From positions 1 to 27,633 of the forward strand of contig JARKSN010000215.1 in assembly GCA_029974275.1 (NCBI GenBank): a stretch of DNA of 27,633 bases, in the 5' to 3' direction. The position numbers were made by a program, and so were the translations under genes. The stretch comes from Candidatus Hydrogenedentota bacterium (GTDB lineage Bacteria > Hydrogenedentota > Hydrogenedentia > Hydrogenedentales > SLHB01). This document shows positions 1,993-27,194 of the stretch, piece after piece. The notes under the pieces were generated by a model that made no database searches, was not told where the DNA came from, and saw only the letters and a program-made list of their open reading frames with translations. How positions within the stretch are numbered: the first letter of the stretch is position 1; every line of letters starts with the position of its first letter.

Positions 1993-4983
1993 ATGCGGCC
2001 TGAATTCGCCGAGTTTCACTTCCGCGATTCCGAACGCGCCGGACGCACGCTCGATCACATTCTCACCCCGGCGCGTCCTCAGCTTCCTCAGCACCTTGTC
2101 GATGCGTTGCGCGAATCGCCCGATCCCACCCTTGTGTTGGACCGCCTCGAGCGGCTTCTCGAGGAGATCGGCCATCCCAACGCGCTGCTGGATATGATGG
2201 ACTCGGCCCCGCGCTATGCCGGGATGATGGCGGCGGTTTTCAGCCAGAGCCAATTTCTTAGCGACATCGTGTTCAAGCACCCCGATTACCTGGTTTGGCT
2301 GTGGACGGAAGTGGATCTGGACGCGCCGCGCCGCCGCGAGGAAATGACCGAGGAACTTCTTCGCCAAGTGCAGGCCGTCGACGCCTTCGACGCGCGCTGT
2401 CAGAGCATCCGCCGTTTCAAGCGACGCGAAATTCTGCGCATTGGCACCCGCGACGTGTTTGAGCATGCCTCCGTCGCATCCGTCACGGAGGATCTTGCCA
2501 ACCTCGCGGACGCCGCCCTCGAAGCCGCCTTGTACGGCGCGCGCGAAGCGTTGGCTCCGCGCTTCGGCTTCCCCCGCGACGCTGAAGGGCGCGAATCCTC
2601 CTTCGTCGTGCTTGCCCTCGGCAAGCACGGCGGACGCGAATTGAACTTCAGCTCCGACATTGACCTGATATTTCTCTACTCCGCCGAGGGGGAAACCACC
2701 GGCGGCGCGTCGGGCAGCGTCGCCAACGGCACGTACTTCGTCAAACTAGGCGAGCTCATCATCAAAGCGCTCGCCGAAAACACCGCCGAAGGCCATGTCT
2801 TTCGCGTGGACATGCGTCTGCGCCCCCACGGCCGCATGGCCCCGCTCGCCGTTAGCCTCGAAACCGCCCTGGATTACTACGAAAACTACGGGCAAGCGTG
2901 GGAAAGACAGGCGCTCATCAAAACGCGCCCCGCCGCCGGCAATCTGCTCCTGGGTCAGGAATTCATCGAACGCACCCGCCCCTTCGTGTTTCCGCGCTAT
3001 TTTGACGACGAAACCCTGGAGGATATCCGCGCGGTCAAACAGCAAATGGAAGATCTCATCCGGGAGCGCGGCCAAACCGAGACCGAAGTGAAGCTTGGCC
3101 GCGGCGGCATCCGCGACATCGAGTTCACCGTGCAGGTGCTGCAACTTCTCAACGGCGGCCGCGAGCCCGGTTTGCGCACCGGCAACACCCTCGAAGCCAT
3201 CAGGCTCCTGGGCGAATACAACATCCTCAGCGTGTTCGAAGCCGCGACTCTCGCCAGCAACTACGCCTTCCTGCGCCAAGTCGAGCATCGCCTGCAAATC
3301 GAGAGCAGCCAACAACGCCACGCGCTTCCCGCCGATCCCGGCGCCCTCGAACAATTCGCCCGCCGCCTTGGCTTCTTCAACAGCGAGGCGTTTCTCGGCG
3401 AATACCGAAGCCGCACGCGAGAAACGCGCGCCATTCTCGAACGCTTTCTCGAGACCGAGGGAGCCGGAAACCAATGGGTGTACAGCCTGCTCAACACCCG
3501 GGGCGATAGCGAAAACACCCTGCCCCGCCTTCTCCAGTTCGGTTTCCAGGACCCCGAAAAAGCGCGGCAGCAACTGCTTGCCCTATACGCGGGCACGACC
3601 GAGCGCCCGCATTCCCTGCACATTCGCCAGCAATTCGCGGCGATTACCCCGATGCTTCTCCACGCCCTTGCGGCCTGTCCCGATCCCGACGGAACCCTGG
3701 TCCGGCTCGGGCGCATTCTCACATCCTTGCAGGCGCCCGGCGCGTTGTACAACCTCATTCACGTCAGTCCTCATGTGGCGGACTACCTTTCAACCCTCCT
3801 TTCAAACAGTGAGTACCTTAGCGAAATGATTCTCCGCGATCCCGGCCTGTTCGAGGCAATTGAAACCACGGACGCCATTGACGTCCCCGTGACCCGCGAA
3901 GCGCTCCAGACGACGCTGGAGGAATTGTCCCGGGCCTATGACGCCGAAGCCGCTCCCTACCGACTCCATAACGCGGAGACCTTGCGCGTCGGCATGCGCG
4001 AATTGTTCCGCGGCATCGACGTGTTTCAAGTAGGCCGCGAACTTTCACTCATCGCCGAAGTCAGCCTCGATTACATGCTTGCGCGCGCACAAATTCGCGC
4101 CGAGGAGCGCTTCGGCCCTGCCTCGCCCCGTTTCGCCGTTCTGGCGCTGGGAAAATTCGGCGGGTGCGAAATGGGGTATGGCAGCGACCTCGATCTCGTT
4201 TTTGTATACGAAGGAGGCATTCCCCTCGAAAGCGGCATGGCCGCTTCCGAATACTTCGCCGTGCTGGCTTCGAACGCGCTCAAGGGCCTGAAGGACCACA
4301 CCCGGTACGGACATCTGTACGACGTGGATGCGCGGCTGCGTCCTGACGGCAACAAAGGAGTTCTTGCCGTCACCGACGAGCGTCTCGCCGATTATTACCT
4401 GCATGAAGCCCAGACATGGGAACGCCTTGCCCTCGTCAAAGTGCGCGCCGTCGGCGGCGACAGGGAATTCGGGGAAAAAGTCGCCGAGCGGGCGCGCGAC
4501 ATCGCTTTTGGCGCGCCTTTGACGCGGGAGGAACTCGCTGAACTCGCCGACATGCTGCTTAAGATTCAGGCTGGCGTCCCCGAACTGGACCTCAAAAAAC
4601 GCGCCGGCGGCATCATCGAAATTGAATTCACGTTGCGCATGCTCCAGTTGCGTCACGCATGCCACCATCCCGCTTTGCGCCGCGGCGATGTCCGGGGGGC
4701 CATTGAGGAATTGAAAGCGGCGCGCGTGCTCGCGTCTCCGGACGCCGACGCCCTGCTCGAGGCGTACATCCTGTTTCGCCGCCTCGAGAACCGCATCCGC
4801 ATGGGACAAGGCCACTCCGGAACCTCCTTGCCCGCCACCCCCGAAGGACGCGCCGATCTTGCCGAGCGTCTCGGCATTGCCGCCGATCTGCTCGATCTTG
4901 TCGAGGAGCGCCGCGCCGAAGTTCATGCCGTCTATGCCCGCTCTCTCGACGCCCTTCAGCATGAGGCCGACGCAACCGCATAG
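1993..4983 (+). CDS. glnE: Bifunctional glutamine synthetase adenylyltransferase/adenylyl-removing enzyme
   Basis: Two nucleotidyltransferase halves: LGKHGGRELNFSSDIDLIF...RVDMRLRPHG...WERQALIK...GGIRDIEF and LGKFGGCEMGYGSDLDLVF...DVDARLRPDG...WERLALVK...GGIIEIEF; 996 aa. Confidence 0.96.
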   Translation: MRPEFAEFHFRDSERAGRTLDHILTPARPQLPQHLVDALRESPDPTLVLDRLERLLEEIGHPNALLDMMDSAPRYAGMMAAVFSQSQFLSDIVFKHPDYLVWLWTEVDLDAPRRREEMTEELLRQVQAVDAFDARCQSIRRFKRREILRIGTRDVFEHASVASVTEDLANLADAALEAALYGAREALAPRFGFPRDAEGRESSFVVLALGKHGGRELNFSSDIDLIFLYSAEGETTGGASGSVANGTYFVKLGELIIKALAENTAEGHVFRVDMRLRPHGRMAPLAVSLETALDYYENYGQAWERQALIKTRPAAGNLLLGQEFIERTRPFVFPRYFDDETLEDIRAVKQQMEDLIRERGQTETEVKLGRGGIRDIEFTVQVLQLLNGGREPGLRTGNTLEAIRLLGEYNILSVFEAATLASNYAFLRQVEHRLQIESSQQRHALPADPGALEQFARRLGFFNSEAFLGEYRSRTRETRAILERFLETEGAGNQWVYSLLNTRGDSENTLPRLLQFGFQDPEKARQQLLALYAGTTERPHSLHIRQQFAAITPMLLHALAACPDPDGTLVRLGRILTSLQAPGALYNLIHVSPHVADYLSTLLSNSEYLSEMILRDPGLFEAIETTDAIDVPVTREALQTTLEELSRAYDAEAAPYRLHNAETLRVGMRELFRGIDVFQVGRELSLIAEVSLDYMLARAQIRAEERFGPASPRFAVLALGKFGGCEMGYGSDLDLVFVYEGGIPLESGMAASEYFAVLASNALKGLKDHTRYGHLYDVDARLRPDGNKGVLAVTDERLADYYLHEAQTWERLALVKVRAVGGDREFGEKVAERARDIAFGAPLTREELAELADMLLKIQAGVPELDLKKRAGGIIEIEFTLRMLQLRHACHHPALRRGDVRGAIEELKAARVLASPDADALLEAYILFRRLENRIRMGQGHSGTSLPATPEGRADLAERLGIAADLLDLVEERRAEVHAVYARSLDALQHEADATA

Positions 4984-5292: not shown

Positions 5293-6255
5293 ATGATCAA
5301 GGCGGACCGGTTAACGATGCATTACGGCCCAGTGCAGGCCTTGAAAGATGTGTCGTTCGAGGTCAAGCAGGGCGAAATCGTAGGGCTGCTTGGCCCGAAC
5401 GGCGCGGGCAAATCGACGACGATGAAGGTGTTGACCACCTATTTGCACCCGACCAAGGGGACGGCGTTCGTAGGCGGGATTGACGTTCTGAAAGACCCGT
5501 TGGGGGTGCGCAAAATCATTGGATATCTGCCGGAAATCCTGCCGCTCTACATGGACATGGAAGTGCGGGGATATTTGACGTTTGTGGGCAAGGCCCGCGG
5601 CCTGAGCGGCGGACGGCTCAAGGAGCGAATCGACGTGGCGCTCGACGAATGCGGCCTGCGCCCCATGTACCGCAAAGTCATCCGGGAGCTCTCGAAGGGA
5701 TACAAGCAGAGGACGGCGCTCGCACAAGCCTTGATTCACGATCCCTCCATCATCATTCTCGACGAGCCGACGTCGGGACTGGACCCTCACCAGATCGTTG
5801 AAATTCGACAACTGATCAAAAATCTGGCGGCCGGCAAAACCGTTATTCTGTCGACCCATATCCTGCAGGAGGTCGAAGCCACCGCCGACCGCATCGTCAT
5901 CATCAGCAACGGACGGATCGTCGGCGACGGCACGATCGACGAATTGCGCGACGAGGTCAAAAAAGAAGAACGCATCCGCGTCAGCGTTTCGGGCGACAAA
6001 ACGGAAACCCAACGTCTGTTGTCGGGCATGTCCGGAGCCCGCAAAGTGGAACCCATCGCCGGCGAGAGCGGTTTCGCCGCCTTCATGGTGCATGGCGCGC
6101 CCGGCGCGCAATTATGGAAGGAAGTGGGCCAATTGGCGCGTCTTAAAAACTGGGAAGTGCGGGAACTGAGCGATCACCCATTGACCCTGGAGGAGACATT
6201 CCTGTCGCTGACGGAACGGGCCGCCAGCCCGGCCGCGAAGAGGGCCGAATCATGA
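5293..6255 (+). CDS. ABC transporter ATP-binding protein (ABC-2 / GldA-like)
   Basis: Walker A GPNGAGKST, LSKGYKQR signature, Walker B IILDEPTSGLD, STH switch; GGAGG RBS. Confidence 0.93.
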   Translation: MIKADRLTMHYGPVQALKDVSFEVKQGEIVGLLGPNGAGKSTTMKVLTTYLHPTKGTAFVGGIDVLKDPLGVRKIIGYLPEILPLYMDMEVRGYLTFVGKARGLSGGRLKERIDVALDECGLRPMYRKVIRELSKGYKQRTALAQALIHDPSIIILDEPTSGLDPHQIVEIRQLIKNLAAGKTVILSTHILQEVEATADRIVIISNGRIVGDGTIDELRDEVKKEERIRVSVSGDKTETQRLLSGMSGARKVEPIAGESGFAAFMVHGAPGAQLWKEVGQLARLKNWEVRELSDHPLTLEETFLSLTERAASPAAKRAES

Positions 6256-8795
6256 AAAACATCTTGACCGTGGTTCGCCGGGACCTCTCGGCGTATTTCA
6301 CCTCGCCCATCGGCTACATCTTCATGATCGTGTTCTTGTTGATGAGCGTGGGCTTGTACATCACCTCATTCTTCACCTTTCCCGTGGCCGACATGCGCGC
6401 GTTTTTCGGCAACCTGCCGGTGTTGTTGTGCGTGTTCATCCCTGCGGTGACGATGCGGGTCTGGGCCGAAGAACGCAAGGAGAACACCTGGGAATTGCTG
6501 TTGACGTTTCCCATGAAGGCGCACGAACTGGTGCTGGGCAAGTTCCTGGCCGTTTTCGCGTTTTACGCGATGTCGACCGCGGCGACGGCGACGGTCCCGG
6601 TGATGTTGGCCGCTCTGGGGAACCCGGATTCGGGCGCGATTCTCTGCGGCTATCTCGGAACGTTGCTCTTAGGCGCTTTTTTCCTTGCCATCGGCATCTT
6701 CTTTTCGGGGCTATGCAAGGACCAGATCGTTGCGTTTGTCGTGAGCTTGCTGGCGTGCTTCGCCGTGTTCCTGCTGGGCACGAATTTTATCGCGTCATAT
6801 CTCGACGGCTTGTTTTCGGAGAAGAGCTGGCTGGCGGGACTGGGAACGACGCTCGGCGAACTTGTCGGCGTCATCGAGCATTACAATTCATTCACGCGCG
6901 GCGTCATCGACATCGCCGATGTGCTGTATTTCGTCGTCTGGACGGCGCTCTTCCTGGTTCTGAATGGACTGTACATCGACAGCCGCAACCGTCGCGGAGC
7001 GAAAATGGCCATTGGCACGGCGGCCGCGCTGTGCATTGGCATCGGCTTGGCCTTCAACTGGCTGATCCTCAAGCAGTCCTTCGGACGTTTCGACATGACC
7101 GAGGACAAGATTTTCACGGTGTCGCCAGCGTCCAAGGCGATTTTGTCGCGCCTGGACACGCCGGTGCAAGTCAAGCTGTACATCACGCGCAAGGACAAGA
7201 TGCCCACCGGCATGAACACGCTGGAACAGGACGTGAGCGACAAGCTGAACGAGCTTCGACTGGCCTCGGGCGGCAATGTCGAGTTCACGCCGGTGTATTT
7301 GGACGTCGGCAATCTGGCCCCGGAAAAAGAAGCGAGGGAGGAAAAGTCAGGCAAGCCGACCAAGGAGGAAGAGGTCGAGTCGCTTGAGAAACGCATGCTC
7401 GACAAGGGCATCGAACCGTTTGCGGTTCGCGCGATGGAACGCGATCAGGTGACGACAAAGTACATCTATTCCAGCCTGGGCATCGGCTACAAGGACAAGC
7501 AGGAGGAAATCATTCCGCAGGTGATGCCGGAAACGCTTCCCGCGCTCGAGTACCGGTTGGTCAGCACGGTATTCAAGCTGACGCGGGCCAAGGCTCCGGT
7601 CGTGGCGCTGGTCGCTCCGAAGGAAGCGATCAACATTTCGCCGGAAATGCGCGCCATCTATGCGCAACTGGGCCAGCCCGTTCCCCAGACCGAAGACCCG
7701 TTCGAGTATGTGGAACAAGCGTTGCGCCTGGAGAAATACATGGTGGAGCGGGTGGAACTGACCAAGGAAAGCCCGATGCCGAAGGAGTACGACGTCTTGG
7801 TGGTGATGAACCCCCGCCAACTGAACGATCGACAACGGTGGGAGATCAACCGGGCGCTGGTCGAGGGCAAGTCAGTCGTGTTGGCGGTGCAAAACTACTA
7901 CTGGGACTATCAGACGACGCGCAGTGGCCTGAACCTGATGAAGCAGGAACAGCAGCCCGACATCAACCCGCTGCTCGAAAAATACGGCCTGGGCATCAAC
8001 GACGACATCCTCATGGACAAGAACAAACTGCCGCTGACCGTCCAATCGCGCGGCGGATCGCTCCAGGAAATGTTGATGGGGCAAACGGTCAACATTCCCA
8101 TTCAGATGCTGGTGACCAGCTCCTCGATGGACCCCGAAACCTCCATCACCAATCGTCTGGCCAACGTCTTCTACATCTGGGGATCGGCGCTCAAGCTTAA
8201 CGAGGAAGACCTCAAAAAACACGGCCTTACCGCGAAAGTGGTCATGAAAACCAGCGCCTCGGCTTGGACGGCGCCCGCGGACGCCCCGCCCGCAGACCTG
8301 CAGCGCGCCTTTACGAGCCCGCCTGCGGACACGGATCAGTATCCGCTGATGGCGATGGTGTCGGGGCAATTTCCCGATGCGTACAAGGATCAGCCGCGCC
8401 CGAAGTGGCCTGCGCCGCGTCAGATGCCGGGACAACCGCCCGCGCCGGATACGTCGAACGAGCCAGAGGCGGAGCCAGCGACCCCCGCTCCGGGAAAGCT
8501 GGCGCTGCTGGGATGCGCGCAAATGTTCACCAAGAGCTTCCTGCGCGATTCGAACCTTGACTTGTTCATGAATACGGTGGACGCGGCGGCGTTGGGCGAC
8601 GAACTGGTCAACGTGCGCGGTCAAAAGCAAATCGACCGTGCGATCGACAGGCCGTCCGACGCCACGCGCACGCTGTGGAAAACCATCAACTACGGTCTGA
8701 TGCCGATCATTATCGCCGTGATTGGCATCGGGGTCGTGGCGGTGCGGCGGCAATCGCGCAACGCCTACACCCTATCGTTCACGGAAAAAAGCTGA
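6252..8795 (+). CDS. Fused GldF-like ABC-2 permease + GldG-like (ABC auxiliary) extracytoplasmic domain, 847 aa
   Basis: The N-terminal ~245 aa has several TM helices and the TMRVWAEERKENTWELLLTFP motif (GldF-like). Then RFDMTEDKIFTVS...S.AIL..LD.PV (GldG-like start), a large soluble domain and a C-terminal TM. ATGA overlap with the ATPase stop. Confidence 0.85.
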   Translation: MKNILTVVRRDLSAYFTSPIGYIFMIVFLLMSVGLYITSFFTFPVADMRAFFGNLPVLLCVFIPAVTMRVWAEERKENTWELLLTFPMKAHELVLGKFLAVFAFYAMSTAATATVPVMLAALGNPDSGAILCGYLGTLLLGAFFLAIGIFFSGLCKDQIVAFVVSLLACFAVFLLGTNFIASYLDGLFSEKSWLAGLGTTLGELVGVIEHYNSFTRGVIDIADVLYFVVWTALFLVLNGLYIDSRNRRGAKMAIGTAAALCIGIGLAFNWLILKQSFGRFDMTEDKIFTVSPASKAILSRLDTPVQVKLYITRKDKMPTGMNTLEQDVSDKLNELRLASGGNVEFTPVYLDVGNLAPEKEAREEKSGKPTKEEEVESLEKRMLDKGIEPFAVRAMERDQVTTKYIYSSLGIGYKDKQEEIIPQVMPETLPALEYRLVSTVFKLTRAKAPVVALVAPKEAINISPEMRAIYAQLGQPVPQTEDPFEYVEQALRLEKYMVERVELTKESPMPKEYDVLVVMNPRQLNDRQRWEINRALVEGKSVVLAVQNYYWDYQTTRSGLNLMKQEQQPDINPLLEKYGLGINDDILMDKNKLPLTVQSRGGSLQEMLMGQTVNIPIQMLVTSSSMDPETSITNRLANVFYIWGSALKLNEEDLKKHGLTAKVVMKTSASAWTAPADAPPADLQRAFTSPPADTDQYPLMAMVSGQFPDAYKDQPRPKWPAPRQMPGQPPAPDTSNEPEAEPATPAPGKLALLGCAQMFTKSFLRDSNLDLFMNTVDAAALGDELVNVRGQKQIDRAIDRPSDATRTLWKTINYGLMPIIIAVIGIGVVAVRRQSRNAYTLSFTEKS

Positions 8796-8826
8796 TCCGC
8801 CGTCGAGCGGTTTGAGGAGGAGACGC

Positions 8827-10797
8827 ATGAAGGCCAAACACGTCGTGATCCTGGCGGCGGTGCTCGGCGCGCTGATCGCCGTTATCCTGTTGCAAAAAAC
8901 GCAGGAAAAACCCGTCACGATTATCGAACAAGTCAAATTCGCCCGCCTGGTTCCGGAAGGAATGACCCAGGCCGATATCGCCAAAATCGAACTGTATCGA
9001 GGATCGGCGGCGGACCAGAAGATCGTGCTTACGCGCGAAGAGAGCGGCGACACATGGCGCGTCGCCTCGCATTTCAACGCGCCTGCCGACATGAAGGCGA
9101 TCGAGGATTTCGTGGACAAATTGGCGGACGCCAAAGGCGAGCCGCGCGCGACGGTGAAGACGGATGCGGATTTCGACGCATATGACCTTTCGGACGCGAA
9201 GAGCTTTCACATCGTCGGCTACAAAAAAGGATCGGACGAGGCGGCGTTTCACGTGCTTGTCGGAAAATCGCCGTCGTTCAGCCAGACCTTTGTGCGCATG
9301 GCCGAAGGCAAGGACGTTTTCGTGAACGACCTCGACCTGCGACGGGAAGCGGGCGGCGCCGACGCCTTATCCGCGGCTCCAAGCGCAACAACGTCCGAGG
9401 AACAGCCGTTGCAGGCCACGAAGTGGGTCAAAAAAGAAGTCGTGAATATCGCAAAAGACGATATCGTCGCGATCACCATCAAGACGCCGGACAAACAGCT
9501 CGCACTGGAGCGACACGAAAAACCCGCCGCCGCGCCGCCCGCCGATTCGTCCGCTGCGGCGCCGCCTGCCGCCCCCGAATACGAGTGGAGACTGACGTCG
9601 GGCGGCCTGGGAACCGCGATCAAGCAAGCCGGCGTGGACAATGTGCTGCGCGCCTTTGGGCCTTTCATGGCGTCCGATATCGCGGATCCCGCGAAGAAGG
9701 ACGAGTACGGTTTGCAGCCCCCCGGCTTTGTCTGCACGGTGAAAAGCGCCAAGCAGGAGACGCCTATCGTGATCGAGGGAGGGCGTCCGGACCCGAAGGG
9801 CAATGCCTATTTGCGCGTGGCAAGCGAAAAGGACGATGTGGTGTACTCGCTCCCCGCGGTTTCGTTCGAGCGTCTTTTCCCCAAGGGCAATGTCCTGTTC
9901 GATCTGCCGGGCGTCGGACTGACCGCCGACGCCATCGACCGCATGGAACTGGTCCAGCCCGACGGCAACATCACGCTCATCAAGAAAGACGGCGCGTGGC
10001 ATGTTGAGGAGCCTGCCGCGCGGTTGACGGCGCAAACCTCGACGATCGAGTCGATCGCCCGGGCGCTGGCGGCGTGGCGCGCGGCGGACTACGCCGATAT
10101 TCCCTTGCACGAGGCCGGTCTGGAATCGTCCGATCGCCGCGTCACGTTCACGGCGGGCCCTTCCACGCTGCATACGCTCACGTTTGGCGGAGCCGTTCCG
10201 GGGATCGACGCCTTGTATGTCCGCTTTGATCAGGGCGACAAGGTCTACGTCATGATGCGTTCGGATTATGACGCGATATTCGTCCAGCCGAAGAACCTGT
10301 TCGAACTGGCATTGCTGGATGTGATGGAAGACGACATCAAAGCCGTCCGTTTCGACGGAAAAGAGGGGAAATACGCGCTGGAACGCGAAGGCGCCGAGTG
10401 GAAACTTCTCGCGGACGGGGCGCGCGACGATGCCGACGACGAGGTGGTCGCAAACGTGCTGAGTTCGCTATCGATGCTTCAAGCAGACAATATCTTTTTC
10501 CACAAGGCGGCGCTCGAAGGCGACAGCAAGCAGTTCCAGCGCGTTACCGTCGTGACGCACGACAATACGGAACACGTGTTGACGTTCGGCCTGAAAGACG
10601 ACTCCGGATATCCGCTCACCGTGAGCGGCAAGAGCGCGGTATTTCACGTAGCGTCCGCCGAGGCGAACACGCTGCTTCCATCGCCGGGATACCTCCGGCA
10701 TCACCCCGAGGAAGCGCCGCAAGCCGCCGATGAATCCGCAGGGAGTGAATCGACCGAGTCGCAGAACAGCGCCGCTCCGGACGCGTTGCTGCAATAG
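8827..10797 (+). CDS. DUF4340-like membrane-anchored protein with repeated domains, 656 aa
   Basis: GAGGAGG RBS before ATG 8827 and an N-terminal TM anchor. Repeated units (I..I.l...L.re...W...A.....l..l...YGL...G...Y.R...V.) are typical of DUF4340 proteins encoded after gldG-like genes. Confidence 0.75.
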   Translation: MKAKHVVILAAVLGALIAVILLQKTQEKPVTIIEQVKFARLVPEGMTQADIAKIELYRGSAADQKIVLTREESGDTWRVASHFNAPADMKAIEDFVDKLADAKGEPRATVKTDADFDAYDLSDAKSFHIVGYKKGSDEAAFHVLVGKSPSFSQTFVRMAEGKDVFVNDLDLRREAGGADALSAAPSATTSEEQPLQATKWVKKEVVNIAKDDIVAITIKTPDKQLALERHEKPAAAPPADSSAAAPPAAPEYEWRLTSGGLGTAIKQAGVDNVLRAFGPFMASDIADPAKKDEYGLQPPGFVCTVKSAKQETPIVIEGGRPDPKGNAYLRVASEKDDVVYSLPAVSFERLFPKGNVLFDLPGVGLTADAIDRMELVQPDGNITLIKKDGAWHVEEPAARLTAQTSTIESIARALAAWRAADYADIPLHEAGLESSDRRVTFTAGPSTLHTLTFGGAVPGIDALYVRFDQGDKVYVMMRSDYDAIFVQPKNLFELALLDVMEDDIKAVRFDGKEGKYALEREGAEWKLLADGARDDADDEVVANVLSSLSMLQADNIFFHKAALEGDSKQFQRVTVVTHDNTEHVLTFGLKDDSGYPLTVSGKSAVFHVASAEANTLLPSPGYLRHHPEEAPQAADESAGSESTESQNSAAPDALLQ

Positions 10798-16166: not shown

Positions 16167-17537
16167 CTAGAAGTTGTAGCCCTTTTCATCATGCTGCGTG
16201 ATGTCCAAGCCCTCGGTTTCCTCCGCGTCGTTCACGCGCAGGCCAAGGGTCTTGTCCAAAATAAAGAGGATCACGGCGGAAACCCCGCCTGACCAGACCA
16301 AGGTCGCCAAAATGCTCTTGATCTGAACCACGAGCTGGGGAAGGATGGCGATATCGCTGTCCGCGCCCGTTCCCTGTCCGCCCAGAGAATACGCCGCGAA
16401 GACGCCGGTCAACAGCGCGCCGACCGTTCCGCCGACGCCGTGCACGCCGAAGGCGTCCAGCGAATCGTCATAGCCGAAGAAGCGCTTCATGGTCGTCGCG
16501 CTGAAGAAGCAGATAATGCCTGCCGCCGCGCCAATCGCGAGAGATCCCATGGGGCCGACGAACCCGGAAGCCGGGGTGATCGCGACCAGACCCGCGACCG
16601 CGCCCGTGGTGACGCCCAAAACGCTCGGCTTGCCATGCTTCATCCATTCAACGGTCATCCACGCCAAGGCCGCCATCGCCGTCGCCAACTGGGTCACCAG
16701 CATCGCCATGCCCGCGCGCCCATTCGCGGCGACCGCGCTACCGGCGTTGAACCCGAACCAGCCGACCCATAGCATGGAAGCGCCCACGACCGTCAACGTC
16801 AGGTTGTGCGGCATCATCGGCGAAGTCGGAAAGCCCTTGCGCTTGCCCAGCATCAGCGCGCAGACCAAGGCCGCGATGCCCGCGTTGATGTGCACCACCG
16901 TGCCTCCCGCGAAGTCCAACGCGCCCCAGTCCCACATCAGGGCGCCGTCGCCGCTCCAGACCATGTGGCAGATTGGGAAGTAGACAATCGTCACCCACAG
17001 CGCCATGAACCACAACATGGCCGAAAATTTCATGCGCTCTGCAAAGGCCCCGATGATCAGCGCCGGCGTGATGATCGCAAACGTTAACTGGAAGCAGAAG
17101 AAGACGCTCTCGGGAATCGTCCCCGTGACGCTGTCGACGCTGATTCCCCGGCAGAACGCCTTGTCGAACGCGCCGACGAAGGAATGCCAGTTCAACACGC
17201 CCTTCTCCATGCCCGTGGCGCTGAATGCCATCGAATACCCGTAAATCGCCCACAGCACCGTCACCAGACACGTGATCACGAAACACTGCATCAACACCGA
17301 CAGGACGTTCTTCGTCCGCACCAAGCCGCCGTAAAACAGCGCCAGGCCAGGGATCGTCATGAACAACACCAACGCCATCGACGTCAGCATCCACGCCGTG
17401 TCGCCCGAGTCTATTTGGGGCGCCTCGGCTACCGTCTCCTGCGCCGCCGCCACGGCCGCCCACCCTATCGCCGAGAGCGCCATCCCCGCGCCCGCCAAAA
17501 GCCTGCGCCCGCTTGTTCCTGTTGCTATGCGTAACAC
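16167..17537 (-). CDS. amtB: Ammonium transporter AmtB with N-terminal signal peptide
   Basis: DTAWML...PGLALFYGG, FQLTFA, AFAER, DFAGGTVVH, GWFGFNAGS and DDSLDAFGVHG (twin His); AGGAGG RBS before GTG. Confidence 0.97.
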   Translation of the reverse strand: MLRIATGTSGRRLLAGAGMALSAIGWAAVAAAQETVAEAPQIDSGDTAWMLTSMALVLFMTIPGLALFYGGLVRTKNVLSVLMQCFVITCLVTVLWAIYGYSMAFSATGMEKGVLNWHSFVGAFDKAFCRGISVDSVTGTIPESVFFCFQLTFAIITPALIIGAFAERMKFSAMLWFMALWVTIVYFPICHMVWSGDGALMWDWGALDFAGGTVVHINAGIAALVCALMLGKRKGFPTSPMMPHNLTLTVVGASMLWVGWFGFNAGSAVAANGRAGMAMLVTQLATAMAALAWMTVEWMKHGKPSVLGVTTGAVAGLVAITPASGFVGPMGSLAIGAAAGIICFFSATTMKRFFGYDDSLDAFGVHGVGGTVGALLTGVFAAYSLGGQGTGADSDIAILPQLVVQIKSILATLVWSGGVSAVILFILDKTLGLRVNDAEETEGLDITQHDEKGYNF

Positions 17538-17606
17538 GTCTTCATCCTCCTATGGCTTGCGGCCCGCAGGCCTGCATGTTTCCTTCGCCGATGCGCCGCC
17601 GCTTCC

Positions 17607-18251
<645 letters not shown>

Positions 18252-18394
18252 TCAACGTTTTCGTCAAGAAAAGCGCTCCGTATATGTAGACTATATTTTA
18301 TAGTCAATACATATTTATTTTGATATATTCAGATATAAATAGAAGTCAAGAGATGGCAAGATATAAAATAAATTCAAATATATCGGAATTTATC

Positions 18395-18423
18395 TTGACA
18401 AAATGTATACAATGCAGTATAAG
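18395..18423 (+). promoter_or_regulatory. Sigma-70-type promoter for the wHTH / RM-like operon
   Basis: TTGACA-N17-TATAAG with AT-rich upstream sequence, ~75 nt before ATG 18498. Confidence 0.8.
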
Positions 18424-18497
18424 GATATGGCCTGCTAGGGGAATCAAATGAATTATAGAACGATAAATAGTTTTCGTGACAATATATTTTTTGTAAT

Positions 18498-19103
18498 ATG
18501 ACTACATTATTTGGTCAAAAAAATCTCAATCAGGCTCTCGACGTCCTGTTCACCTCGAAGGCGCGTGTGGCGGTGCTGCGTCTGTTGCTGCTCGATCCCG
18601 TTCGCCCCTATTACCAGCGTCAAGTCGAGGCGGCGACCGCCTTGCCGCTTCGGGCCGTCCAGCGCGAACTTGATCGGCTGACGACGGCGGGGCTGTTATA
18701 TCGTCGTGTCGAGGGCAACCGTACGTACTATCACGTGGATCGTCAATTTCCCCTGTTTCCCGAATTGCGGGCCATGTTTTTGAAGACAGGGACGCCGCTG
18801 GAGCGTTTCCGGGGCGCGCTCGCGTTGGAGGAGTCGGTGCGATTGGCGTTTTTGATTCAGGATGCCGGGAAAATTCTGGTGGTTTCCAACGGCGGCAAGC
18901 GTCCCGTAGCTGCTCCGCCGCCGCAGTGCGCCGTGGAGGCGCAATCCGTCGAAACGTTTGTAAGGATTTTGTACGAGTCCCCGGCAACGTATGCGCCTTA
19001 CCTGTCGGAAGGCGTGGATGTGCTTGGGCGCCGGGATGATGTGGTGTGGCGACATATCGAAGCGGCGGGCTTCACGGTCGCCAAAGCCAAAGGGGTTGCT
19101 TAG
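18498..19103 (+). CDS. Winged-HTH (ArsR-like) protein fused to a degenerate MNT/nucleotidyltransferase-like domain, 201 aa
   Basis: LFTSKARVAVLRLLL...VQRELDRL..AGLL....GNRTYY......LFPELR.MF.KT is the N-terminus typical of wHTH-NTase (MNT antitoxin-like) proteins. The C-terminal VRLAFLIQDAGKILVVS has no GS...DxD motif. Confidence 0.75.
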   Translation: MTTLFGQKNLNQALDVLFTSKARVAVLRLLLLDPVRPYYQRQVEAATALPLRAVQRELDRLTTAGLLYRRVEGNRTYYHVDRQFPLFPELRAMFLKTGTPLERFRGALALEESVRLAFLIQDAGKILVVSNGGKRPVAAPPPQCAVEAQSVETFVRILYESPATYAPYLSEGVDVLGRRDDVVWRHIEAAGFTVAKAKGVA

Positions 19104-19104
19104 C

Positions 19105-20541
19105 ATGAGTGTAACGTACGACATCAAAAAACTGTGTGAGTCCTGGTGGGAAAAAGTCGCCGACACCACCAAGAGCGAGCAGCACCGCTTTGCGGAACGC
19201 TTCCTGGCGTTGTTGGGGTGGGAAGAGGCCGCCCCCATTGCCTTGCCGGGAGAAGCGGCGCGTTTGGGCACGGTGTCGTATTTGCTGCGCGCGGGCAGTC
19301 ACGATTCGCTGGCGGCGCATTTCGTCATGCCGGGGGCTCTCGAACCTCCCAGCAACGTGATCGAGCGCGGGCTCGATTTTTGCGAGACGACGCGATCGCT
19401 TGTCGACGCCACGCGCTTTCTTCATGTCTCGTATGCATACGTCACGGACTTGTTCCGTTCGTACCTCTACGACGTTCGCGCGGAGGAACTCATCCTGTAC
19501 GCCGATTCGCCGGCGCAATTTCAGCAGGAATTCGGCGACATTCTCGCACGGGCCGATATCGAACGCGGCGCGCTCGAAGAGGTGCGCCGTCAGCCTCGCA
19601 GCGCGACCGCCCGCCAGCTTCGTGAATGGGGGCATCGCTGGCGCCGCGCGCTGATGGCTGAGTCGGAAGCTTCCGAGGAAGTCGCCGAGCAAGCCATCGA
19701 TCGCCTCATCGTGCTGCGCTATCTCATCGAGCACGACATCCTCAAGCGCGCCGGATGGCGGCTGCAGAAACGATACCAGGACCTGATCCGCGCGGCGTCC
19801 GGAGCGCGTCCCGAAGGTTGCGGCAAGAGGATCGTCGCGTTGTTTCACGACATCTGGTTCGACTGGAAGGCGGACATTTTTGCGCACGCCCCGATCATTG
19901 ACGCCGTTTTGGAGCGCGATCAGATTGCGGCGCCGTTGTTGCGCGAATTCTCGATGCTGTCGCGCGCGAAATTCACCATCGCGACCGTCCTCGAAAGCTT
20001 CAACTACGGCGAAGCCGCTGAAAAGGCCCGCGTTCGCATGATTCCCGAGGAAACCGAAGAGCGCAACCATCTGCTTGCAAAACAGACCCTCGACACGATC
20101 GACGAAATGCAGATCGCCATCGATCTCGCCGAGGAGGGGTACCGCAGCATCTTTCACTGGTTTGATCGGTTGATTGCGCTCTACGAACATCTCGATCGGG
20201 CCTATGAGGCGCGCCAGACACATGCCGCCCCTGTCCCCCGCGACATCGATCTATTCGCGTGGTCCGCCGAAGACGCCAAGCGGCCGCACGCGCTTTCCGA
20301 CAAATGCGTCCACGCCGCCGAGAAGGCGCTGGTCGTATATTGGACCACGCCCCGGCAATACCGCACCGCCCGCCTGCTTCTGTACCTTCACCTCATCAGT
20401 CGCTACGAGCAAGGCAAACAGCGGTTTCCGCGTTTCCCGCAACTCGAAAAGGCACTGGTCGAACGGCCGCGCATTCTCGATTCTGATCGGAAGCAGATCT
20501 TCGGCCAGCCCCCCGCGCCGGGCGATTGGGAAGTGGTGTAG
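19105..20541 (+). CDS. Hypothetical protein, 478 aa; apparent inactive, truncated homologue of Type IIG (Eco57I-like) restriction-modification enzymes
   Basis: ATG 1 nt after the upstream TAG. By eye it resembles Type IIG enzymes colinearly (FLALLGW; VTDL...YD; W.R.L; EQAIDRLIVLRY..E.DI; LF...W.ADIF; .TARL.L.L..; FPQLE.AL), but has no PD-(D/E)xK, DPxxGxG or NPPY. Confidence 0.7.
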   Translation: MSVTYDIKKLCESWWEKVADTTKSEQHRFAERFLALLGWEEAAPIALPGEAARLGTVSYLLRAGSHDSLAAHFVMPGALEPPSNVIERGLDFCETTRSLVDATRFLHVSYAYVTDLFRSYLYDVRAEELILYADSPAQFQQEFGDILARADIERGALEEVRRQPRSATARQLREWGHRWRRALMAESEASEEVAEQAIDRLIVLRYLIEHDILKRAGWRLQKRYQDLIRAASGARPEGCGKRIVALFHDIWFDWKADIFAHAPIIDAVLERDQIAAPLLREFSMLSRAKFTIATVLESFNYGEAAEKARVRMIPEETEERNHLLAKQTLDTIDEMQIAIDLAEEGYRSIFHWFDRLIALYEHLDRAYEARQTHAAPVPRDIDLFAWSAEDAKRPHALSDKCVHAAEKALVVYWTTPRQYRTARLLLYLHLISRYEQGKQRFPRFPQLEKALVERPRILDSDRKQIFGQPPAPGDWEVV

Positions 20542-20819
20542 CCAGGATGCTTCGCAAGCGCCGCGCTTCGCGAGAATGAGAGGAGATATGCTGGGAGACG
20601 CACGCGAAGAGGCGCTTGATCCGGGAAGAAAGAAAGCGTAGTTTCAACGCAGGGCAGGTCTTCGTGGCGGGCGTTCGTGCGGGAACGAAGGCGACGTTTT
20701 CAAGAGGGATGGCCTCCGGTTGTTTCTGCGAATGCCATTCGCGAGGAGTACGCAGCGAAACGGATCGGTTCCGGAACATGGGGAAGCTCTCGGTCTCCCA
20801 ACCTGTCGGAGGCGCGCAC

Positions 20820-21671
20820 ATGACGTCATCTACTGACCTTCAGGCATTGCTTGACCTCCCGTTGCTTCAGCGCATACCCGGCGACGCCCGAGAACGCGTC
20901 GCGACGCTTCTGCATCGCGTTTCCACGCGCATCGCCGTTTCCGATGGCGAAATTCTCTTGCTCCAGGGAAACGTGGGGGGCGATATGGGTTTTGTCTTGT
21001 TGCGCGGCGCGGTCGAGATCGATAGGGAAGAAACAGCGCCGATCGCCGTATCCGCGCCGGCTCTGTTGGGCGAGATGCTTCAATTCAATCCGAGCGCGCA
21101 ACGAACTGCCACGGTGCGGGTCGCCGGGGATGCGGAATGCCTCCGATTTCCATGGCAGGATTTTTATGCGCAGGCGAGACGGGACTTGTCGGAGGCCGAG
21201 CAGGACATGCTCATGGACAGCATGGAACGATGCATCTGGGAACGCTTGGGCCGCGATACGCTCATCGATCTCGCCTTATTCCGCGGCGTCTCCGACCAAC
21301 TGAAGCTCCGGGCGTGCTTGCTGTTGCAGTGGATTGTCCGGCGGGCGGTCCTATCCGCCGGCGAGCAACTGTTTGCCCAGGATGATCTGTGCGGCGGCGC
21401 GGGGTACATCCTTACGCGCGGCAGTTTCGAACTGACGCGGCCCAATCACCCGGCGGCGATCGTCGGTTCGCCCAATCTCTTGGGCGTGATGCCGCGCTTC
21501 GATCCCGATCGACGTTGGAGCGCGACGGCGATTGCGCGGGAAACGGCGGAACTGCTCCGGTTCTCGTGGCTGGAGTATGAGGCGATGCTGCAGCGACGGC
21601 TCTCGCAACGCGAACAGCAGGAACTGGGCGACGCCATCGCGGCAAACGCAGCGGCGCATTTCGTCGCGTAA
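20820..21671 (+). CDS. Stand-alone tandem cyclic-nucleotide-binding (cNMP) domain protein, 283 aa
   Basis: Two repeats: GEILLLQG..G..GFVLLRGAVEI...LLGEM...RTATV and GEQLFAQD....GYILTRGSFEL...LLGVM...WSATA. GGAGG RBS before ATG 20820; no HTH or output domain. Confidence 0.8.
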   Translation: MTSSTDLQALLDLPLLQRIPGDARERVATLLHRVSTRIAVSDGEILLLQGNVGGDMGFVLLRGAVEIDREETAPIAVSAPALLGEMLQFNPSAQRTATVRVAGDAECLRFPWQDFYAQARRDLSEAEQDMLMDSMERCIWERLGRDTLIDLALFRGVSDQLKLRACLLLQWIVRRAVLSAGEQLFAQDDLCGGAGYILTRGSFELTRPNHPAAIVGSPNLLGVMPRFDPDRRWSATAIARETAELLRFSWLEYEAMLQRRLSQREQQELGDAIAANAAAHFVA

Positions 21672-21720: not shown

Positions 21721-22608
21721 CTATAGCGCCCTTTGCACGGGCGGCGCGCCCGCCTTCGGCAGCACCAACGCATTGAGCCAATTGATGAACTCCCGCTGAC
21801 GCATCTCGTCCTGGATGACGTGATCGTCGATCCCCAACTGCCAGCGGAGGTCCGTGCGCGCGGGATCGTCGTGGAGAGCCTCCAGGCGATCGACGTACGC
21901 CATCAGGTCTTCGTGGCCGCGGAAGAGGCCCTGTTTCACGAGACGGTCTTCGCGCGCGACGATGAGCCGCGCCAATTCATGCAGGTCATACTCGGGGTGA
22001 TACTGCACGCCCCAGAACTCGCCCTTGCCGTGTTTGACGGCCACCGCCTGGCAACAGTGCTCATTAGCGGCAAGCAGTACGCCGCCTTCAGGGAGTTTCG
22101 TGATGTGGTCGTCGTGACTCACAAAATGCGAGTAGACGTGCGGTTTGCCGTGGAACATCGGGTGCGTTTTCGCGGCGTCGGTCGTGGCGATGTTGCGCAC
22201 GACGCCCATCTCGCGTCCCTTGGGATGGGGCGAAACTTCGCCGCCGGCGGAGTAGACGGCCACTTGGGCGCCCCAGCAGCTGCCAAAACCCGGCACGCCG
22301 ACGTTATACGCGCGCTTGGCGAGTTCCACCTGACACGTCGCGCGCTCATCGTCCGTGTGGTAGACCGTCAGGTTGCAGCCCGGCCACAACACGCCCGCGT
22401 ATCCCTTGAGGTCTTCTTCGGTGGCGCCTCCCTTCAAATCATCGCTCGATAGCCAGACGTCGTATTCGGCATCCGGCAAGTACTTCACCAACATGTCGCG
22501 ATAGAGCGCCCACGCCAACTTCATGCCCACTTCGTCGAATTGGTCCCGGCTGGCCTTGGGATATCCATCCAGAATCAAGAAGCGCAACGGCTTCGACATC
22601 GTATTCAT
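21721..22608 (-). CDS. Type 1 glutamine amidotransferase (GMP-synthase-like GATase domain, stand-alone)
   Basis: Nucleophile elbow GSCWGAQ, H.D.I, QYHPE (His-Glu of the triad). Alternative start at 22599. Confidence 0.88.
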   Translation of the reverse strand: MNTMSKPLRFLILDGYPKASRDQFDEVGMKLAWALYRDMLVKYLPDAEYDVWLSSDDLKGGATEEDLKGYAGVLWPGCNLTVYHTDDERATCQVELAKRAYNVGVPGFGSCWGAQVAVYSAGGEVSPHPKGREMGVVRNIATTDAAKTHPMFHGKPHVYSHFVSHDDHITKLPEGGVLLAANEHCCQAVAVKHGKGEFWGVQYHPEYDLHELARLIVAREDRLVKQGLFRGHEDLMAYVDRLEALHDDPARTDLRWQLGIDDHVIQDEMRQREFINWLNALVLPKAGAPPVQRAL

Positions 22609-25304: not shown

Positions 25305-27194
25305 TTACGCGTACCACTCCGAATGGGGCAGCATGCGTTCGTAGTCTTCGATTGTCCCGCTATCCAGACAGCATTCGATAATCTTTCTGCCTACAGGAGA
25401 CAAATCCGGCTCAAGAAACTGCGTAACGTGCTCGCGGAAGAAGTTCACCAATATCTGCGCGCCCTGGTCGTACCCTTCATCCCCCACCTCGGGTTGGGTG
25501 TTCACTTCGAGAAACCCGTGCGTGATGGGAATGCCTTCGATACGCATGGATCGCAGTGCATAGCCCAGCAGGGCGCACCGCGCATGGGCTATCTGGTCAG
25601 CGCCGAATTTCGCGCCCCCGCGCCGGGCAAGATAATCGCGCGTGAGCCACTGCGGCATAAAACCGCATGCCCACGCCCCGATGTGCTGATTCGGCACAAG
25701 GATGTATCGGGTGCGCGGCGTTTCCTGGATCTGCTGGAGCAGAAGGTTCGCTTGATCCACCCGTCGCCCCGTCGTAAAGGGCCAGTAACTGCCAACGCCT
25801 TCGCTGCCCATCGTGTCCGTCTCGACAATACTGGGATTCGAGAAGCCGCGAGGGGCGACGAGACGCCACAGCCACGCCAACGCGGGCGGCAATACATGAA
25901 ACAACCCGATAATGCCGTAGCTTGGATTCTCGCGGGTGCATGGCGGCGTGCGAATGCCGATGCTTCGAATATCGATACTGACGGGTTCGTTCACCACGTT
26001 CGGCACAATGGATCGCGGTATAATGACTCGTGGGTTGGGACACGGCTTGCCGGGTTCATCTTCAATATGTTCCCAGATAAGCGCGCGACTGCCGGGAACC
26101 GCGTCAATGTTCAGAAACAGCAGGGGTACAGGCGGGCGCGTCGTCAGTTTCTCCAAATCATGATCCGCCCCATACTCATCAATGTGGTTGACGCGCACGA
26201 ACCAGCCTTTTTCGGCATCCACGAGCCAAAGTTTCTCGTTCTTTTGCTGAATGCTGGGATGGCACAACGCCATGTCATCGCACACCGGATGCAGCTCGCA
26301 CATGCGCGGAATCTCGATGTAACGCTCCTCGCCGGTCAGCACATTGCGTCCCTTGAGCATACGGCCATCGGGCAGGCGATGGGGCTGCTCCAGCATTTCG
26401 CTCTTTCCGCCGCCGCTGGCCCCTTCGTGCATGATTGTCAATACATTGTCGTAGGGCGTGATGACCTGCACCGCCGAGCAGTGGGCCGTGACCCAGCCTT
26501 CCGCCGCGCCAAGGCGAATCAATGCCCCATAGACGCCTTTTTTTGCGCTAGGACCTGGGTAAAGATTGTAGGAAAAGATCTCGTGGATGGCATCGGTCCG
26601 ATTGTGGACGACGATCTGCTTCCCCTCGAAATGGGTGTGCCGAAACGGAGGCGCCACGTAGATAATGGTCTTCGGCGCAAAGTGATCGGGCAAGTCATCC
26701 TGCTGGATAATGCCCTGCAGCAAAGCCAGCCCAAACGCAAAAAAACCGGCGTTCGCCGGCGCCACAACCAAAGCGTCATCTCCCATGTCGCCTTGGCCCG
26801 TCCGAAAAGCGAAAATGGCCAATTCCTGTCCGGCAAGCCACTCCAATGTCTGCGTTCTAAGCCCGGCAAAATCTACCCCAAAACGGCCCTGAAAGGTCGG
26901 CTTGTCCGTCGGCTTATCGTCTGCCACCAGCATGCAGTCGGGATCGCGCCGGCGCATGTAGGGGTCCACGTAGTTGGCCACGATGCCGTTTCGAACCCGG
27001 GCGACGACGGCCTCGGTCACCGAACGCCCATCGGGAAGATCGTATTTCACCTCATGGAAATCCCGTTCAGCGCCGCCACAGGCCAAATCGAACAACTCGC
27101 TGACGTTTCCCAGAACCTGCACGCTGGGGGAACTCTTGAACACCTGCTCCAGTTCAGAAGGTGGATTCACCGATCGCCAATCCGCTATTGCCAT
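25305..27194 (-). CDS. DUF4914-type protein with PEP-carboxykinase-like catalytic motifs, 629 aa
   Basis: YMRRRDPDCM, YPGPSAKKGVY, HCSAV, HEGASGGGKSEM (P-loop), VCDDM, NPRV and EGVGSYWPF motifs; GAGGG RBS. Confidence 0.8.
   Translation of the reverse strand: MAIADWRSVNPPSELEQVFKSSPSVQVLGNVSELFDLACGGAERDFHEVKYDLPDGRSVTEAVVARVRNGIVANYVDPYMRRRDPDCMLVADDKPTDKPTFQGRFGVDFAGLRTQTLEWLAGQELAIFAFRTGQGDMGDDALVVAPANAGFFAFGLALLQGIIQQDDLPDHFAPKTIIYVAPPFRHTHFEGKQIVVHNRTDAIHEIFSYNLYPGPSAKKGVYGALIRLGAAEGWVTAHCSAVQVITPYDNVLTIMHEGASGGGKSEMLEQPHRLPDGRMLKGRNVLTGEERYIEIPRMCELHPVCDDMALCHPSIQQKNEKLWLVDAEKGWFVRVNHIDEYGADHDLEKLTTRPPVPLLFLNIDAVPGSRALIWEHIEDEPGKPCPNPRVIIPRSIVPNVVNEPVSIDIRSIGIRTPPCTRENPSYGIIGLFHVLPPALAWLWRLVAPRGFSNPSIVETDTMGSEGVGSYWPFTTGRRVDQANLLLQQIQETPRTRYILVPNQHIGAWACGFMPQWLTRDYLARRGGAKFGADQIAHARCALLGYALRSMRIEGIPITHGFLEVNTQPEVGDEGYDQGAQILVNFFREHVTQFLEPDLSPVGRKIIECCLDSGTIEDYERMLPHSEWYA

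Follow-up and report, generated by a model that had tools for sequence, protein, structure and literature searches.

The 27,633-nucleotide (nt) stretch of DNA analyzed here, referred to as the window, is contig JARKSN010000215.1 (positions 1 to 27,633, forward strand) of the Candidatus Hydrogenedentota assembly GCA_029974275.1. It harbors a gene for a winged helix-turn-helix (wHTH) protein (gene 1), a gene for a truncated relative of restriction-modification (RM) enzymes (gene 2) and a gene for a tandem cyclic-nucleotide-binding (cNMP) protein (gene 3). An initial annotation, made from the sequence alone, had proposed that these genes form a three-gene module behind a near-consensus sigma-70 promoter. 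The three open reading frames, the TAG-C-ATG junction between genes 1 and 2 and the 278-nt gap between genes 2 and 3 were borne out in the window sequence. The promoter TTGACA-N17-TATAAG is present as well, with the last T of its -10 element missing, and for this reason it is not called by the scanner. The features of the locus are the following:

18288..18306, no strand: upstream operator-like palindrome with a perfect 7-3-7 core (GACTATA-TTT-TATAGTC), non-coding, 210 nt before gene 1
18395..18423, plus strand: sigma-70-like promoter (TTGACA 18395-18400, TATAAG 18418-18423)
18499..18517, no strand: start-codon operator-like palindrome of 19 bp, on the gene 1 start codon, its position being kept in most relatives
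18498..19103, plus strand: gene 1, 201 amino acids (aa), reading frame checked in the sequence
19105..20541, plus strand: gene 2, 478 aa, reading frame checked in the sequence
20820..21671, plus strand: gene 3, 283 aa, tandem cNMP-binding protein, not part of the module

Scans with Pfam, PADLOC and NCBIfam identified gene 1 as a partial PDC-M05A and gene 3 as two cNMP domains, and gave no match for gene 2; an Rfam scan of the window was likewise without a match. As had been expected, no full PADLOC system was matched. The stop codon of gene 1 and the start codon of gene 2 are separated by a few bases at most in all 29 loci compared, which agrees with the tight coupling proposed from the window alone.

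The predicted structure of gene 2 (pLDDT 90.7) consists of a nuclease-like fold (residues ~1-162), a helical spacer (~163-295) and a truncated methylase part (~296-478). This model matches MmeI with a Z-score of 13.9 (root-mean-square deviation 4.2, 268 residues aligned, model 125-478 on MmeI 157-623), followed by PglX (Z 10.9), HsdM proteins (Z ~9) and the N-terminus of HsdR (Z 8.3, model 16-162). With Foldseek, no row reached E 0.001 or better for the gene-1 or the gene-2 model, the top row for gene 2 being DrdV (E 9e-3), and the gene-2 profile had no match among the sequences of solved structures. A profile search of 1.84 billion representatives returned 110 hits, which comprised close relatives, distant relatives of 430-476 aa and longer proteins covering profile positions ~3-293. 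Among 14 of these longer proteins, 13 passed the Pfam cut-off for Eco57I, 11 contained TaqI_C and all contained, weakly, HSDR_N or MmeI_N. The gene-2 family aligns with these Eco57I-like enzymes over 395 columns (hhalign 98.3%, E 1.6e-14, enzyme residues 29-490), the identity of gene 2 to its nearest active relatives being ~20%.

The catalytic motifs of the full enzymes have been lost. Methylase motif IV (NPPY/F; motifs as defined in PMC4833311) occurs in 0/120 and 0/29 relics versus 12/13 full enzymes, and motif I (DPACGxG) in 1/120 and 0/29 relics versus, again, 12/13 full enzymes. The nuclease strands do not contain the PD-(D/E)xK catalytic residues: there is no conserved D or ExK, and columns 57-75 of 120 gene-2 sequences, where the alignment is loose, hold neither a conserved acidic residue nor a conserved lysine. 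The target-recognition domain of MmeI begins at residue 621 (PMC4833311) and the C-terminus of gene 2 aligns at MmeI residue 623; gene 2 thus ends where the recognition domain would start. This domain is absent from gene 2, and no gene for one lies downstream of gene 2 in the inspected loci. In the window genome, the missing half of the enzyme was not seen as a separate partner protein, nor was there a close Eco57I-like partner; the other A6 matches did not go beyond motif level (E 1e-6 or weaker). Gene 2 thus represents a truncated Type IIG/IIL RM enzyme relative, devoid of the nuclease motif, of methylase motifs I and IV and of the target-recognition domain, and its initial description as an RM-like gene lacking catalytic motifs was correct.

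The gene pair has the domesticated look noted from the outset (two coupled, defence-derived proteins lacking catalytic motifs). Gene 2 behaves as a core gene, a phylum-wide conservation absent from the initial annotation. It was matched in 60 of 61 related genomes (47/47 near-complete ones) and then in 130 of 135 Hydrogenedentota genomes (83 of the 86 near-complete ones). Nearly all genomes have a single match, extra matches being partial pieces, and most named homologues carry the source label Candidatus Hydrogenedentes. The distant relatives align full-length with the gene-2 family (100%) and one of them maps to Sumerlaeota records; a profile search of 75 Sumerlaeota genomes retrieved homologues in 66. 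A third, low-GC lineage carries the relic alone at two loci. The ratio of nonsynonymous to synonymous substitution rates (dN/dS) is 0.045-0.14 for gene 2 (seven pairs) and 0.10-0.15 for the Sumerlaeota homologues (three pairs), and therefore gene 2 is under purifying selection and not decaying. By tblastn, none of the 72,556 plasmid and 50,697 phage records matched gene 2. A quick tree of 67 rows, with long branches, places the 14 full-length enzymes and all 53 relic rows on opposite sides of a branch (SH-aLRT 100), a topology that would allow a single origin of the relics.

In the low-GC lineage (35-37% GC), a RAMP gene that looks CRISPR type III-like by eye belongs to a convergent operon located ~1.5 kb away from the relic (loci L172 and L173; 6001-7398 and 8947-13383).

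Gene 1 has a different ancestry. Its predicted structure (pLDDT 92) comprises an ArsR/HlyU-like winged helix (residues ~1-100; Z 11.7 to HlyU/CzrA) and a C-terminal domain, likely MNT-derived, which has no GS..DxD motif. The PADLOC match to PDC-M05A spans residues 12-119 (E 6e-21) and the alignment with canonical M05A proteins residues 11-121 (hhalign 99.75%, 38% identity), stopping at the strand that precedes GS..DxD. This motif is absent in 107/107 gene-1 sequences and invariant in 5/5 canonical proteins. Among the Pfam families listed for gene-1 members (25 of 29), neither NTP_transf_2 nor Polbeta occurs, and the language-model neighbors of gene 1 include Polbeta/NTP_transf_2 clusters at 0.93-0.94. 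The C-terminal half is likely to be a dead MNT domain. Of the wHTH-MNT assignment first made for this gene, the winged helix stands, while descent from an MNT is secure up to residue 121 only; judged from its sequence, gene 1 is, with the same limit on its ancestry, a disarmed relative of PDC-M05A. Its dN/dS is 0.08-0.25 (seven pairs).

PDC-M05 is a nucleotidyltransferase and HEPN pair whose antiviral role is unconfirmed (PMC12988326). Canonical M05A is patchy in Hydrogenedentota (12 strong matches in 11 of the 135 genomes) and is followed by the M05B HEPN gene in 3/3 loci tested, whereas the gene downstream of gene 1 is the RM relic in 55/55 strong matches. These matches come from 55 of the 61 related genomes and all lie directly upstream of gene 2, so that the two genes adjoin in 55 of the 60 genomes with gene 2; of the remaining five, four do not have gene 1 and one is interrupted by the end of its contig. 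Gene 2 is intact without gene 1 in 11 inspected Hydrogenedentota genomes from at least six genera. Similarly, no gene-1 homologue was found in 30 + 18 Sumerlaeota gene-2 loci, nor in three whole genomes scanned without a positive control. Since gene 2 persists without gene 1 in these 11 genomes and in all Sumerlaeota loci examined, an obligate complex of both products is doubtful.

The regulatory region of the pair contains candidate operators, which the initial annotation did not mention. The consensus TGACTAYA-N3-TRTAGTCA recurs at the gene 1 start codon, in the promoter spacer and upstream, and the spacer of relatives often holds an operator half-site. A TTGAC.-N16-18-TA...T promoter was found 60-140 nt upstream of gene 1 in 21/28 loci versus 0/28 in-gene control stretches, the window itself being among the 7/28 loci missing this pattern. 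An operator matrix was built from unselected 19-mers at the gene 1 start in 27 other loci, the window genome being excluded. In the 4.38-Mb window genome, it ranks the site at 18288 first (21.3 bits) and that at 18499 second (20.2 bits), the third site scoring 15.8 bits. Among held-out gene-1 promoters, 14/15 score at least 12 bits and eight have two such sites. Gene-2 promoters from genomes without gene 1 gave 0/11 above 10.6 bits (14 regions were fetched, of which two with gene 1 and one cut off were dropped), and canonical M05A genes score at most 9.2 bits. The predicted operator overlaps the promoter or the start codon and co-varies with gene 1, being missing where gene 1 has been lost. 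In the recognition helix of gene 1, residues R52, Q55, R56 and E57 are invariant in 107 sequences. It is thus very likely that gene 1 acts as a dimer which recognizes TGACTAYA-N3-TRTAGTCA in one or more of these positions (start codon, promoter spacer, upstream) and exerts negative feedback. Paired operators are spaced by 144-231 nt and not clearly in helical phase; looping is therefore not claimed.

In a phylum-wide scan, 9/10 perfect palindromes lay at gene-1 starts, among the matches listed. Palindrome totals across the 135 genomes resemble those of a reversed-pattern control and, among 30 match loci inspected, the 17 away from gene 1 share neighbors only between close kin, apart from one weak pair. 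A wider regulon of the palindrome was thus not found. One perfect palindrome away from gene 1 (G080:C301:29747, locus L137) lies between two leftward reading frames and is either due to chance or a lineage-specific target. Several canonical PDC-M05 wHTH-MNT genes (loci L074-L089) carry their own, differing palindromes just upstream of their start; autoregulation is suggested as a possible trait of the M05A family.

Gene 3, as initially described, is made only of two cNMP-binding domains (PF00027 twice), which fill the protein. Its membership in the module did not survive comparison: full-length orthologues occur in 15 other genomes out of 60, on a contig different from that of gene 2 in 15/15, and gene 3 is absent downstream of gene 2 in 29/29 other loci (over 600 nt of downstream sequence was available in 26 of them, and three were cut short). 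In other genomes, four inspected gene-3 loci have unrelated neighbors. The three-gene module is thus rejected; gene 3 is a chance neighbor and the module has two genes, the only part of the proposed synteny that holds being the adjacency of genes 1 and 2. In the window genome, transcriptional read-through into gene 3 may occur, as no terminator was called in the gap and the stretch 20535-20830 folds no better than shuffles (z +1.3). Domain 1 keeps the GE..RTA cassette and the cassette of domain 2 is degenerate in all five proteins aligned. The match to PycTIR/TIR-effector models is confined to a cNMP domain (residues 16-121); the effector fusion and the linked cyclase expected of a Pycsar or CBASS effector are absent from the locus, and there is no linkage to genes 1 and 2. 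The tandem cNMP protein belongs to a patchy family with two copies in some genomes.

The two remaining genes resemble several known systems without belonging to any of them. Type IIG/IIL enzymes (Eco57I-like HSDR_N/MmeI_N + Eco57I + TaqI_C proteins; MmeI 5HR4, DrdV 7LO5, BpuSI 3S1S) share with gene 2 the order of nuclease fold, helical spacer and methylase start, but they reach 900-1300 aa versus ~478 aa, and gene 2, which is a single-copy core gene, has the fold order without the nuclease residues, motifs I and IV or the target-recognition domain. BREX PglX/BrxX and Type I HsdM proteins are similar to the helical and methylase-like part and HsdR to the N-terminal part; unlike these systems, gene 2 has no BREX or hsd partner gene and no catalytic motifs. 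PDC-M05 (M05A + M05B) and MNT-HEPN pairs are like gene 1 in length, first place in a coupled pair and palindrome near the start. Gene 1 shares the homologous winged helix of M05A but differs by the absence of GS..DxD, an RM relic in place of the HEPN partner, a different palindrome and a near-core instead of patchy distribution. The C (controller) proteins of Type II RM systems are, likewise, upstream autoregulating HTH proteins for a co-transcribed RM gene (PMC12707154), whereas gene 1 has an ArsR-like winged helix and descends from PDC-M05A. RM-derived orphan methyltransferases have also become fixed in lineages (PMC12707154), but these are modification enzymes, whereas gene 2 is devoid of all methylase motifs tested. 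The pair is built from RM and PDC-M05 parts and probably regulated like a C-protein or toxin-antitoxin operon (PMC12707154, PMC3710099). No description of the gene pair was found in a literature search, whose coverage of subscription journals was poor.

From the observed pairing and coupling, the fold, the lost motifs, the core distribution with purifying selection and the palindrome that disappears together with gene 1, we lean, if only slightly, toward the explanation of a conserved two-gene unit: the winged-helix protein is an autorepressor and thereby controls the amount of a restriction-enzyme relic without catalytic motifs, which acts as a non-catalytic housekeeping scaffold. In this mechanism, a gene-1 dimer would repress its own promoter through the 19-bp palindrome, and autorepression would fix the level of the co-translated gene-2 product. 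Gene 2 probably serves a constant role in the cell, not one against phages. Several lineages and a second phylum keep gene 2 without gene 1, so that gene 2 is the lasting member of the pair and unlikely to be a toxin in need of neutralization. DrdV forms dimers and tetramers through its connector and nuclease domains (10.1101/2021.01.06.425610). The scaffold or adaptor reading arises because gene 2 kept interface domains of this type and lost the catalytic and sequence-reading parts; by this tentative analogy, its nuclease fold and helical connector might allow it to form homo-oligomers that serve as adaptor for another protein or for a nucleic-acid structure.

Several points weigh against this picture. 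Gene 2 was not found in five of the 135 genomes, also with a distant-family profile, and these five include both genomes outside the order of the window (completeness 96% and 93%). The gene-2 protein is acidic (median pI 5.7), so that plain DNA binding is not favored, and the motifs LGW, W..W and LSxxKF, although common to both phyla, are also present in active enzymes, look structural and therefore point to no new site. For gene 1, the match to M05A continues in register past residue 121, but 4/100 and 18/200 shuffles score as high, so that this extension is non-significant. As for the operator, gene-1 loci were the source of the initial consensus, the copy on the start codon runs into coding sequence and related genomes do not count as independent; the non-coding upstream copies and the held-out genomes lessen this circularity without removing it.

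The acidic pI also bears on another explanation, that gene 2 is a structure-specific nucleic-acid binder and not a protein adaptor, its dead nuclease fold serving in repair, recombination or ribonucleoprotein assembly, with gene 1 still being an autoregulator. Six arginines (R118, R161, R162, R311, R420 and R454), invariant in 120 gene-2 sequences, are in its favor, as are fold matches of the nuclease-like domain to mitoribosome chains and splicing-endonuclease subunits (Z 5-6) and a CinA-like gene that follows gene 2 at nine loci of gene-1-less lineages. We regard it as rather unlikely, as Z 5-6 is the background level of the fold search, there is no target-recognition domain and no repair gene is a general neighbor in the inspected loci. 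The retention of the dimerizing and tetramerizing domains of DrdV (10.1101/2021.01.06.425610) with loss of the catalytic ones would also be compatible with a resident decoy, which joins the oligomers of incoming Type IIG/IIL enzymes and shields the chromosome from restriction. Such a role is improbable given the ~20% identity to the nearest active relatives, the slow vertical conservation, unlike that predicted for a protein tracking diverse invaders, and the lack of a close Eco57I-like partner in the window genome.

The ancestors of both genes were defence or toxin-antitoxin proteins and domain 1 of gene 3 retains its GE..RTA cassette, in line with the non-canonical defence role first put forward, or with a cyclic-nucleotide-sensing module of two or three genes. 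This is equally hard to credit: gene 3 is unlinked, the locus has no cyclase, gene 2 has no plasmid or phage match, and its single-copy core distribution and housekeeping neighbors fit poorly with such a role; a defence function of the pair is unlikely. Least credible is a toxin-antitoxin-like pair in which gene 2 has replaced HEPN as the toxin and gene 1 neutralizes it by binding. While the antitoxin-first order, tight coupling and autoregulation are those of toxin-antitoxin operons and the C-terminal motif of gene 1 is conserved, gene 2 stays intact in the 11 genomes (at least six genera) without gene 1, and it is present in 66 Sumerlaeota genomes with gene 1 beside it in 0/48 inspected loci.

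Hydrogenedentota and Sumerlaeota are related to each other. Within the reading of a dosed housekeeping scaffold, the relic would be older than the pairing, since it is common to Sumerlaeota and the third lineage. A PDC-M05-type wHTH-MNT gene would later have been recruited upstream of it in Hydrogenedentota, would have lost its HEPN partner and catalytic loop, and would then itself have been lost in several lineages. It is plausible, although we would not yet favor it, that half of a Type IIG enzyme became a non-enzymatic core component before the two phyla split and that one phylum later captured a disarmed toxin-antitoxin regulator with its former MNT domain as signal input. If true, two retired defence systems would have been assembled into a cellular machine. 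As a rule, defence genes are mobile and patchily distributed and, to our knowledge, the RM-derived genes known to be fixed are working methylases. A gene without any tested catalytic motif, kept in nearly all genomes of one phylum and most of a second, would represent a clean exaptation from defence to housekeeping. Gene 2 would also provide a marker for two poorly known phyla, and gene 1 a repressor-operator pair with a natural control, namely the lineages that lost both together. New here are the removal of the cNMP gene from the module, the descent of the regulator from PDC-M05A, the operator test on held-out promoters together with the joint loss of operator and gene 1, the finding that Sumerlaeota copies have no gene 1 next to them, and the third lineage carrying the relic.

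The remaining observations concern the neighborhood of the pair, in which one conserved feature is the following:

16167..17948, minus strand: glnK-amtB (PF00909), divergent from the gene pair

At least 22 genomes from 11 genera, all of the family of the window (f1), among the matches listed, have glnK next to the pair in divergent orientation, and glnK-amtB is better conserved as a neighbor than gene 3. The palindrome at 18288 sits in the intergenic region common to glnK-amtB and the pair, and cross-regulation of both is possible. A GlnE adenylyltransferase gene (1993-4983, plus strand) and a class-I glutamine amidotransferase-like gene (21721-22608, minus strand) complete a nitrogen-metabolism neighborhood. 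The CinA-like gene (MoCF_biosynth + CinA_KH) of gene-1-less lineages directly follows gene 2 at loci L113-L119, L122 and L123. Elsewhere in the window, positions 5293-10797 (plus strand) encode an ABC ATPase, an 847-aa permease-auxiliary fusion and a protein with three DUF4340 matches, a cluster which we take to be Gld-like, and a DUF4914 protein is encoded at 25305-27194 (minus strand) in a lower-GC stretch at the right end.

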